64,000 nucleotides of DNA from Escherichia coli (GCF_013122565.1 NZ_CP053258.1); one strand, 5' to 3'; shown: positions 52,168-53,521, numbered from the stretch's first letter. Notes: generated from the sequence alone by a model not told the origin. Made by a program: numbers and translations.

Positions 52168-52656
52168 TTAGTTGTTTTTGACACAAATAAATGAAGGAAG
52201 TGTTTCGCCACCAAAAATGAAAGTGTTATTATGTTTACTGACCACGATCCTGTCGCTATCAAAATTAATAACATTGACTACATACCCTGCAAATTCAAAC
52301 GCAGGAACGTTATCACCTGGATGAGCAATAGTTTTCACTTCACTAATATAAAAAGTATTCTTTTTGAAATCCATCACATCAAAGGTTATATCACGGTTAA
52401 CGCGATAGTGGTTGACACCAGAGGTCGATGATTTGGTCGTAACAGAACCAAAAACCCTGATTATACCTACACTATCTGATTGAATATCCATTGATAATGT
52501 TCCAGAAAAGAAATCATCAGGGTTTTCCAGCTTATTAGTCAACAAGGCTCCAACACAATCAATTTTTATGTTTTCATTGATAATTAAAATCGCATAAAAT
52601 AAAAAAGAAGATGGCAAAATAAAAAACACGAGCAACCAAAAATATTTATTATTCAT
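52168..52656 (-). CDS. ToxS-like membrane-anchored periplasmic protein (162 aa), partner of upstream ToxR-like regulator
   Basis: N-terminal TM anchor MNNKYFWLLVFFILPSSFLFYAILII then soluble domain; ATG overlaps upstream gene stop by 8 nt; AT-rich codon usage. Confidence 0.65.
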   Translation of the reverse strand: MNNKYFWLLVFFILPSSFLFYAILIINENIKIDCVGALLTNKLENPDDFFSGTLSMDIQSDSVGIIRVFGSVTTKSSTSGVNHYRVNRDITFDVMDFKKNTFYISEVKTIAHPGDNVPAFEFAGYVVNVINFDSDRIVVSKHNNTFIFGGETLPSFICVKNN

Positions 52657-53521
52657 AATAGTAGATACTCTTACACTCTGATAAATTTACTGTATCATTG
52701 ATTTCAAAAAAGCAACGACTTATAAAAACCCTACCTTTACCATCAAATACGAGGCTCTCATCCTGCTGTGTAACATAAAACCCTCCTTTTATACATGGTA
52801 TATACTTTTCTGCTATACTTCTTGAAATTTCCTGCCGCGCAGAGTGTACACTTGGATTTTTACGATTAAATACATAAATTGGACAAGAGTCGATCATTCC
52901 TGTTTTATATATTTTTTCTTGTTTAACTTTATTATCATTCAAAGCATAAAAATAACAATACGAAAAGCTAATTATTAAAACCAAGAAAAAAAGCATGAAA
53001 TGATACTTACCACTTATAAAACGTTTTTTTTGTTTAGTTTCTGTGGTTAGATTTACGATCGATTCTGGAGAATATACTTCCATTTGTAAATCCTCCGACA
53101 ACTTATTTATCTCACTATCAACTTCAACTGGACAAAGTTCTTTAGGAACACTATCGCTAGTTTCAATTAAATCTATTTCAATAATCTCTGGAATAAGAAA
53201 ACCAGATTTTGGAACTGTTACAATAATATCCCCAGGAACGCCAAGTAGTTTAAAGTTCTTTCTAAGCAAAGATACATACTGTGCCAATGTATTGTTAGAG
53301 ATATTATAGCCATATTTATCCCAGACATAATTCAATATTTCATCCCGAGAGATTATTGTACCATGGTACTTTATAAACAACGCTAACAACCTCGCTGCAG
53401 TGGCTGGAAGCAATATTTCATCATGCGTTTCGACATTAGATACAGAATATCTTATCTCATCATACATAATCTGTCCATTGATTATATGGCTCATATTTTT
53501 CTCATATTTATTTATTTTCAT
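52649..53521 (-). CDS. ToxR/CadC-like membrane-bound transcriptional regulator: N-terminal OmpR/PhoB-type winged helix, single TM, periplasmic C-terminal domain (290 aa)
   Basis: wHTH signature ...ILLPATAARLLALFIKYHGTIISRDEILNYVWDKYGYNISNNTLAQYVSLLRKNFKLLGVPGDIIVTVPKSGFLIP; TM segment YHFMLFFLVLIISFSYCYFYAL; Cys-containing C-terminal region. Confidence 0.7.
   Translation of the reverse strand: MKINKYEKNMSHIINGQIMYDEIRYSVSNVETHDEILLPATAARLLALFIKYHGTIISRDEILNYVWDKYGYNISNNTLAQYVSLLRKNFKLLGVPGDIIVTVPKSGFLIPEIIEIDLIETSDSVPKELCPVEVDSEINKLSEDLQMEVYSPESIVNLTTETKQKKRFISGKYHFMLFFLVLIISFSYCYFYALNDNKVKQEKIYKTGMIDSCPIYVFNRKNPSVHSARQEISRSIAEKYIPCIKGGFYVTQQDESLVFDGKGRVFISRCFFEINDTVNLSECKSIYYYE

Follow-up and report, generated by a model that had tools for sequence, protein, structure and literature searches.

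We characterized a pair of overlapping minus-strand genes, here called A and B, located at positions 52168–53521 of a 64,000-nucleotide (nt) stretch of the Escherichia coli genome (GCF_013122565.1, NZ_CP053258.1; the whole stretch is referred to as the window). Very probably, A and B make up a divergent and previously unnamed pair of the FidL branch of co-component systems, the VtrA/VtrC and ToxR/ToxS type, an assignment that covers both family and architecture. By analogy with characterized systems, we also hold with moderate confidence that the pair works as a co-component sensor whose local control extends to the divergently oriented fimbrial operon. An initial annotation of this DNA had read the pair as ToxR/ToxS-like regulators that might control the neighboring adhesin genes; architecture, folds and family bear out the first half of this reading, and synteny and analogy favor the second.

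Gene structure of the pair

The six-frame list of open reading frames (ORFs) gives a longest form of gene A at 52649..53521 on the minus strand, encoding 290 amino acids (aa). Because every homologue begins at the position of Met10 of this ORF, the start is probably the ATG at 53494, which yields a 281-aa product (52649..53494, minus strand). An ORF of the length first reported for A thus exists, but its likely translated form is shorter. Gene B (52168..52656, minus strand; 162 aa) starts inside the last codons and stop of A, and the two genes share 8 nt (52649..52656, minus strand; ATGAATAA). In the surrounding sequence, TATGAATAA, A ends in TAT GAA TAA and B opens with ATG AAT, so that the ORF list and the sequence agree on two minus-strand genes with an 8-nt overlap. 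This overlap couples the translation of A and B, and both proteins are therefore produced jointly.

Judged by comparison of sequences, A and B are real genes, since homologues at 35–42% identity, in the same order and with an overlap, are found in other genera. The 8-nt overlap is kept in three of four such loci and is 20 nt in the metagenome module L006; the identical length recurs in loci L003, L004, L009, L015 and L017 and in yqeI/yqeJ of E. coli K-12. In every related locus examined, B directly follows and overlaps A. A chance-ORF reading was rejected on account of these homologues and because such lengths are not expected by chance in DNA of 30% GC. The pair is AT-rich relative to its surroundings, as had been described, with a GC content of 0.29–0.34 (52000–53500) vs 0.52–0.59 in the neighboring GTPase/CP4-44-like segment (50000–51500). 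Both ORFs are intact, and annotated as intact, in all three complete E. coli genomes that carry them (99.3–99.8% identity).

Domain architecture of protein A

Protein A has the layout of a bitopic ToxR-type transcription factor. Its cytoplasmic N-terminal part matches the Pfam winged helix-turn-helix (wHTH) family Trans_reg_C at residues 35–109 (53195..53419, minus strand; E 1.4e-11), where residue numbers of the Pfam assignment refer to the 290-aa ORF; this agrees with the OmpR/PhoB-type winged helix proposed at the outset. In a sequence search of the PDB, the closest solved structures were the DNA-binding domains of Vibrio cholerae ToxR (8e-9) and of CadC (5e-6). The wHTH residues W58, G62, N68-T69-L70, Q72 and R78 are invariant across the homologues and YqeI.

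The sole hydrophobic segment of A, MLFFLVLIISFSYCYFYAL (52940..52996, minus strand; best 19-residue Kyte-Doolittle window 2.12), is preceded by KQKKRF, in keeping with the positive-inside rule, and is followed by a periplasmic domain of 96 aa (52652..52939, minus strand), so that the single transmembrane (TM) helix and Cys-containing periplasmic domain first proposed are both found. The four Cys of this domain are invariant in 13 of 13 aligned sequences, K-12 YqeI included; two lie in the last 21 residues, and together the four probably form two disulfides. The domain has a VtrA/ToxR-like alpha-beta fold.

Fold and relatives of protein B

Protein B carries an N-terminal hydrophobic segment (residues 8–26; 52579..52635) followed by 136 periplasmic residues (27–162) with two Cys, Cys34 and Cys158. 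It had no match by sequence in Pfam, NCBIfam or PDB, nor did its profiles in PDB, and its family relationship was revealed only by profile-profile and structure comparison. A profile search with B across 1.84 billion representative proteins returned only 40 clusters, all of about 160 aa. Among 35 aligned sequences, the invariant positions are Cys158 and Asp115, and near-invariance is seen for Cys34 (kept by at least 90% of the sequences), Gly70, Arg88, Phe92 and Pro154. Eleven of these 35 family members match Pfam FidL_like (PF15941) at E<=1e-3, with B itself below threshold. The family profile aligns with the FidL-like protein ECs_1273 of E. coli O157:H7 (hhalign 96.4%, E 1e-9, both Cys aligned) and with K-12 YqeJ (hhalign 80%, E 1.4e-5).

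An AlphaFold2 model of B, built from the 35-sequence alignment, places a TM helix at residues 3–26 ahead of eight strands and one helix (predicted local distance difference test score, pLDDT, 92.7; predicted template modeling score, pTM, 0.82). A Foldseek search of AFDB50 with this model retrieved FidL-like membrane proteins of Enterobacterales, with E down to 1e-9, and structure comparison identified the VtrC/ToxS type of fold, at 7–10% identity within the aligned barrels. On its predicted structure, B is a membrane-anchored periplasmic lipocalin-like barrel, which agrees with the ToxS/TcpH-like layout of anchor and periplasmic domain suggested earlier. A disulfide between Cys34 and Cys158 would staple the first and last barrel strands.

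It was noted that the Enterobacter hormaechei orthologue of B (L003 10001–10489; P0003, which stands for a cluster of 84 sequences) carries Arg where the first conserved Cys is otherwise found, and therefore the stapling disulfide cannot form there. The Pseudenterobacter B, 96% identical to that of E. hormaechei, retains this Cys. A truncated B of 107 aa (P0002) occurs in some E. coli.

Assignment to the FidL branch of co-component systems

The co-component superfamily includes VtrA/VtrC, ToxR/ToxS, TcpP/TcpH, PsaE/PsaF, MarT/FidL, GrvA/FidL, YqeI/YqeJ, STM0341/0342, STM0344/0345, SF3508/3507 and BprP/BprQ, and has been labeled "fast-evolving" (Kinch et al. 2022, PMC9214523). Within its disulfide-containing FidL/YqeJ group, a Cys pair joins the first and last strands of the partner barrel, and conserved Cys occur in the last strands of the regulator (PMC9214523). 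The window pair shares features with the superfamily, namely a wHTH, one TM helix and a short periplasmic tail in A and an overlapping second gene that encodes the predicted TM-anchored barrel of B. Its Cys pattern matches that of the FidL/YqeJ group exactly, and both this pattern and the sequence relationship place B with the FidL-like proteins (PF15941; FidL, YqeJ, STM0342, STM0345 and SF3507). Membership in this branch is therefore supported jointly by Cys pattern, folds and profile relationship. The initial annotation had considered the family not assignable by eye and named YqeI/YqeJ as the nearest analogue; these proteins are indeed related, but a FidL-type co-component pair can be identified, and its closest characterized analogue is GrvA/FidL.

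GrvA/FidL (ECs_1274/ECs_1273), encoded on O-island 47 (OI-47) of E. coli O157:H7, likewise combines a ToxR-type bitopic regulator with a FidL-type partner, and the GrvA wHTH is 27% identical to that of A (E 6e-16). Its neighborhood also holds the EAL phosphodiesterase gene ECs_1272 as well as a chaperone-usher operon led by ECs_1281, a homologue of a 195-aa gene of the window locus that is described below. The fimbriae themselves are 31% (pilin) and 35% (usher) identical between the two loci. Unlike A and B, however, grvA and fidL do not overlap, and they share the strand of the fimbrial operon, downstream of which they are found; neither the periplasmic domain of A nor B has BLASTP similarity to them. 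The known GrvA targets are gadW/gadE and the enterocyte effacement locus (LEE), and the window island is situated at a tRNA-Ser gene rather than at the ycdT-side OI-47 site. Orthology with GrvA was rejected, since identity is limited to the wHTH, B finds no BLASTP match in ECs_1273, and the chromosomal sites differ; on these comparisons the pair is a paralogous or xenologous relative of GrvA/FidL.

YqeI/YqeJ, from the remnant of E. coli type III secretion system 2 (ETT2) in K-12, share with A/B the 8-nt overlap, a 30% identical wHTH and four periplasmic Cys that align with those of A, but no fimbrial operon lies near yqeIJ and BLASTP finds no similarity between B and YqeJ. Two systems offer precedents for control of a neighboring adhesin. 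MarT/FidL of Salmonella pathogenicity island 3 (SPI-3) activate the adjacent adhesin gene misL (PMC9214523), where the cargo, unlike that of the window, is an autotransporter. PsaE/PsaF, the regulators of the Yersinia pH6 antigen, are an overlapping-gene co-component pair that controls an adjacent chaperone-usher adhesin, although PsaF falls outside the disulfide-containing FidL group by sequence (PMC9214523); going by its description, the regulatory logic equals the one proposed here for A/B. The Vibrio systems VtrA/VtrC and ToxR/ToxS differ in their targets (type III secretion system 2 and the toxT/omp genes) and in having known ligands, bile salts; in addition, the disulfide that links the N- and C-termini in the FidL group is absent from the Vibrio partners (PMC9214523). 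Salmonella carries two FidL-group pairs, STM0341/0342 and STM0344/0345 (PMC9214523), with the EAL gene STM0343 between them (PMC11737180). As described, these pairs resemble the window locus in flanking an EAL gene and differ from it in their arrangement and number. The stb fimbrial operon (STM0336-0340) presumably lies directly beside STM0341-0345, which would complete the combination seen here of a sensor pair with an EAL gene and chaperone-usher fimbriae.

The divergent fimbrial operon and related modules

Divergent from the pair stands an intact four-gene fimbrial operon (55993..61190, plus strand). It encodes a major subunit or pilin of 185 aa (55993..56550; 68% identical to the pilin of the E. 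hormaechei module, with matches to NCBIfam fimbrial families), a chaperone of 236 aa (56619..57329; 63% identical to that of E. hormaechei, NCBIfam fimbrial chaperone 1e-70), an usher of 867 aa (57354..59957; 62% identity with its E. hormaechei counterpart across 857 residues) and a tip adhesin-type subunit of 382 aa (60042..61190), which has a diverged N-terminal half and is 31% identical to residues 81–369 of a 369-aa E. hormaechei fimbrial protein.

Between the pair and the pilin gene, three remnants were found on the plus strand. An IS66-family transposase fragment interrupts the ancestral divergent intergenic region at 54179..54769 (+/- 2 nt; coordinates carried over from PapRG-06-5, L001, a 99.8% identical genome annotated in RefSeq), and the local GC content there reaches 0.51; IS66 debris beside the pair had been noticed before. 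At 55247..55651 lies a pseudogene remnant of an EAL gene, of the cyclic di-GMP (c-di-GMP) phosphodiesterase type (found by tblastn with the EAL protein of E. hormaechei, residues 18–159 of 259, 34.5% identity, two in-frame stops), and at 55827..55922 the C-terminal remnant of a gene of about 195 aa from the ECs_1281 family, with a possible LuxR-type HTH (tblastn residues 159–190 of 195, 44% identity, one in-frame stop). Both remnants have also suffered large deletions; in Enterobacter and Pseudenterobacter, the corresponding genes are intact and separate the pair from the pilin gene.

The pair is rare. Together with the fimbrial operon it was present in the same three of 5426 complete E. coli genomes, two of them from baboons and one from a human, and a scan with the A alignment detected relatives in three of 100,044 species-representative genomes. 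Where it does occur, the gene neighborhood is conserved. The orthologous pairs of E. hormaechei (L003) and Pseudenterobacter timonensis (L004) are each divergent from a unit that consists, in this order, of an EAL gene, a 195-aa gene, pilin, chaperone, usher, adhesin and hha, the last of which (NCBIfam Hha, 122 bits) stands directly 3' of the adhesin gene (L003 1854–2057; L004 2657–2860); behind the adhesin gene of the window, a search for traces of Hha found none. The layout recurs in L006-L008, a lineage from metagenomes, there with a gene of 233 aa instead. Conservation of the pair with fimbrial operons, which had been put forward as a check, is thus seen as a divergent orthologous operon in three other lineages. 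On this comparative evidence, the divergent pair-adhesin arrangement is ancestral and was eroded in E. coli by IS66 insertion and decay, because the layout is common to other genera and the EAL and 195-aa remnants are still recognizable in the window. Between modules, A and B are 37–41% and 30–40% identical, whereas ushers are 62–67% and pilins 66–75% identical; regulators that diverge faster than the structural genes fit the "fast-evolving" label of the superfamily.

In more distant relatives, the pair is still divergent from EAL and ~200-aa genes and the cargo changes, to an autotransporter in L015 and L016, in Citrobacter (L012) to the ecp pilus together with MisL-like fragments of autotransporters, and to a giant repetitive ORF in another Enterobacter (L011). 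The gene set of the window is also found in another order in O157:H7 Sakai (L022 12426–23686, equal to 1337425–1348685), with grvA-fidL placed between the EAL gene ECs_1272 and the chaperone-usher operon. The first gene of that OI-47 fimbrial operon, ECs_1281 (L022 23063–23686), belongs with the 195-aa family (hhalign 99.6%, E 2e-24). Among eight members of this ~195–233-aa family (for instance L003 7349–7936), one matches GerE, and the C-terminus resembles a LuxR-type HTH; Pfam and NCBIfam gave no other match. Homology of the 195-aa gene to YqeH or EcpR was rejected, as comparison gave no match.

Proposed mechanism

We propose that A acts as an inner-membrane transcription factor, in which one TM helix connects the cytoplasmic winged helix to a small periplasmic domain that contains disulfide bonds. 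In analogy to VtrA/VtrC, ToxRS (PMC10624426) and TcpPH (PMC11323476), the periplasmic domains of A and B would form an obligate heterodimer. A model of both domains fused into a single chain (11 paired sequences) scored a pTM of 0.79 and a pLDDT of 82.7, both global scores only, and suggests a fixed mutual orientation of the two. By the same analogy, the barrel of B may bind a hydrophobic cue from the gut, for instance a bile salt or a fatty acid, and cue binding or complex formation would protect or stabilize, and activate, membrane-bound A. While still in the membrane, A would then bind and activate AT-rich promoters that are probably silenced by H-NS/Hha. Its primary target would be the divergent adhesin unit, given the conserved synteny and the PsaEF and MarT precedents, and the ancestral order of this unit would have been EAL gene, 195-aa gene, pilin, chaperone, usher and adhesin. 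In the E. coli lineage, the pair and all four fimbrial genes are still intact, but the circuit appears simplified or partly broken, because the EAL and 195-aa genes are decayed and the shared control region now holds an IS66 fragment.

Several observations weigh against local control of the adhesin operon. No conserved operator was seen, as the regions upstream of A and of the pilin gene cannot be aligned across orthologous modules beyond the pilin Shine-Dalgarno sequence, and a promoter and terminator scan gave 13 promoter-like sites vs 16.8 expected, without enrichment. In the window, the two genes that would stand at the head of the target unit are dead and an IS66 fragment intervenes. GrvA is known for effects on the distant loci gadE and LEE and not on its neighboring fimbriae (PMC10877973), and the literature consulted gave no indication that GrvA controls that fimbrial operon. 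Among the distant relatives, L017 has no adhesin in view and L011 has the giant repeat protein instead, and across loci the EAL and 195-aa genes accompany the pair more constantly than any single type of adhesin does.

Alternative explanations

It is conceivable, if unlikely, that the pair works chiefly in trans, on genes of the core genome or on other island genes, in the manner of GrvA, with its position beside the fimbriae reflecting co-transfer on one island. GrvA, its closest characterized relative, is a global regulator that works via GadW-GadE on LEE (PMC10877973, PMC8565820), and the variable cargo next to related pairs, together with a pair that stays intact although IS66 has disrupted its local control region, would fit this view. 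Yet a divergent layout with an orthologous chaperone-usher operon has been kept in three other lineages although the regulators are only 37–41% and 30–40% identical, which is hard to explain without a functional link, and the presence of the pair in only three E. coli genomes makes an ancestral core-genome role unlikely.

We consider it quite improbable that A and B are an orphaned relic, intact in appearance but controlling nothing now that the EAL gene, the 195-aa gene and an uninterrupted control region, all needed for function, have been lost. The in-frame stops in these two genes, the IS66 fragments both in the intergenic region and downstream, the many pseudogenes of the island, the splitting of both Citrobacter A copies across frames and the truncated B of some E. 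coli would all sit well with decay. Against it, unselected long ORFs in DNA of 30% GC decay fast, whereas the three complete genomes all have the two ORFs intact and nearly identical, every invariant residue of the family is retained, including six cysteines and those of the wHTH, and the four fimbrial genes are intact as well. That A is a self-sufficient CadC-like one-component sensor, with B an unrelated small membrane protein of the same operon, is extremely improbable, for although the best NCBIfam match of A is CadC (39 bits, sub-threshold against a cut-off of 400) and B has no Pfam or NCBIfam match of its own, this reading is contradicted by the VtrC/ToxS fold and FidL profile relationship of B, by its constant overlapping position behind A, and by the short ToxR-like tail of A, 96 aa vs a CadC sensor of ~320 aa.

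A possible adhesin control cassette

Local control by a FidL-type co-component pair, our preferred reading, offers a testable model for two genes annotated in RefSeq as "winged helix-turn-helix domain-containing protein" and as "hypothetical protein", and the family assignment extends the co-component superfamily by a rare subfamily. Beside adhesin operons, FidL-type pairs repeatedly occur in the company of EAL genes and an ECs_1281-type gene, and one such case is the surroundings of grvA in O157:H7. We tentatively raise the possibility that the unit of inheritance is a portable four-gene control cassette, in which the ToxR-like A and FidL-like B are divergent from EAL and ECs_1281-family (possibly LuxR-type) proteins and stand before interchangeable adhesin cargo, whether chaperone-usher fimbriae, autotransporters or the Ecp pilus. 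If this were true, periplasmic sensing of lipids or bile would be joined to c-di-GMP signaling, the O157 OI-47 grvA and Salmonella STM0341-0345 regions would be rearranged versions of the cassette, and the long-unexplained "global" role of GrvA would be secondary to an ancestral local adhesin switch. The E. coli copy, with its EAL and 195-aa genes dead, would serve as a natural partial knockout that can be compared with the complete Enterobacter module.

Side observations on related loci and the surrounding island

The EAL proteins of fimbria-linked modules (L003, L004, L011) retain most motifs of the catalytic type, namely EILCR, N, EIVE, DD, K, EGVE and QG. Those of autotransporter-linked modules (L015, L012) have lost the DD and N positions and may be non-catalytic. 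The Citrobacter amalonaticus locus L012 carries two copies of the pair within 8 kb (10001–11325 and 17345–18655), one divergent from ecpA-D and the other from EAL and 195-aa-type genes. Both of its A copies are split over two frames, which may reflect real frameshifts or assembly errors. The same locus has two 598-aa ORFs, and the one tested is a MisL-like autotransporter.

The island that carries the pair is integrated at a tRNA-Ser(GGA) gene (42956..43043, plus strand; ARAGORN), and in PapRG-06-5 it starts after the tRNA-Ser beside ghrA. Next to this tRNA gene, positions 43100–51700 hold a CP4-44-type block with DUF4942, a CbtA/YeeU toxin-antitoxin system, an antirestriction protein, DUF932 and a YeeP-like GTPase, and frameshifts are annotated for several of these genes in the near-identical PapRG-06-5. 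The IS66 fragments at ~54179–54769 and ~62235–62599 bracket a block in which the fimbrial operon is accompanied by the EAL remnant and by a truncated ydeO-like AraC gene (ORF 61578..62399), and this suggests that the block was rearranged by IS elements.
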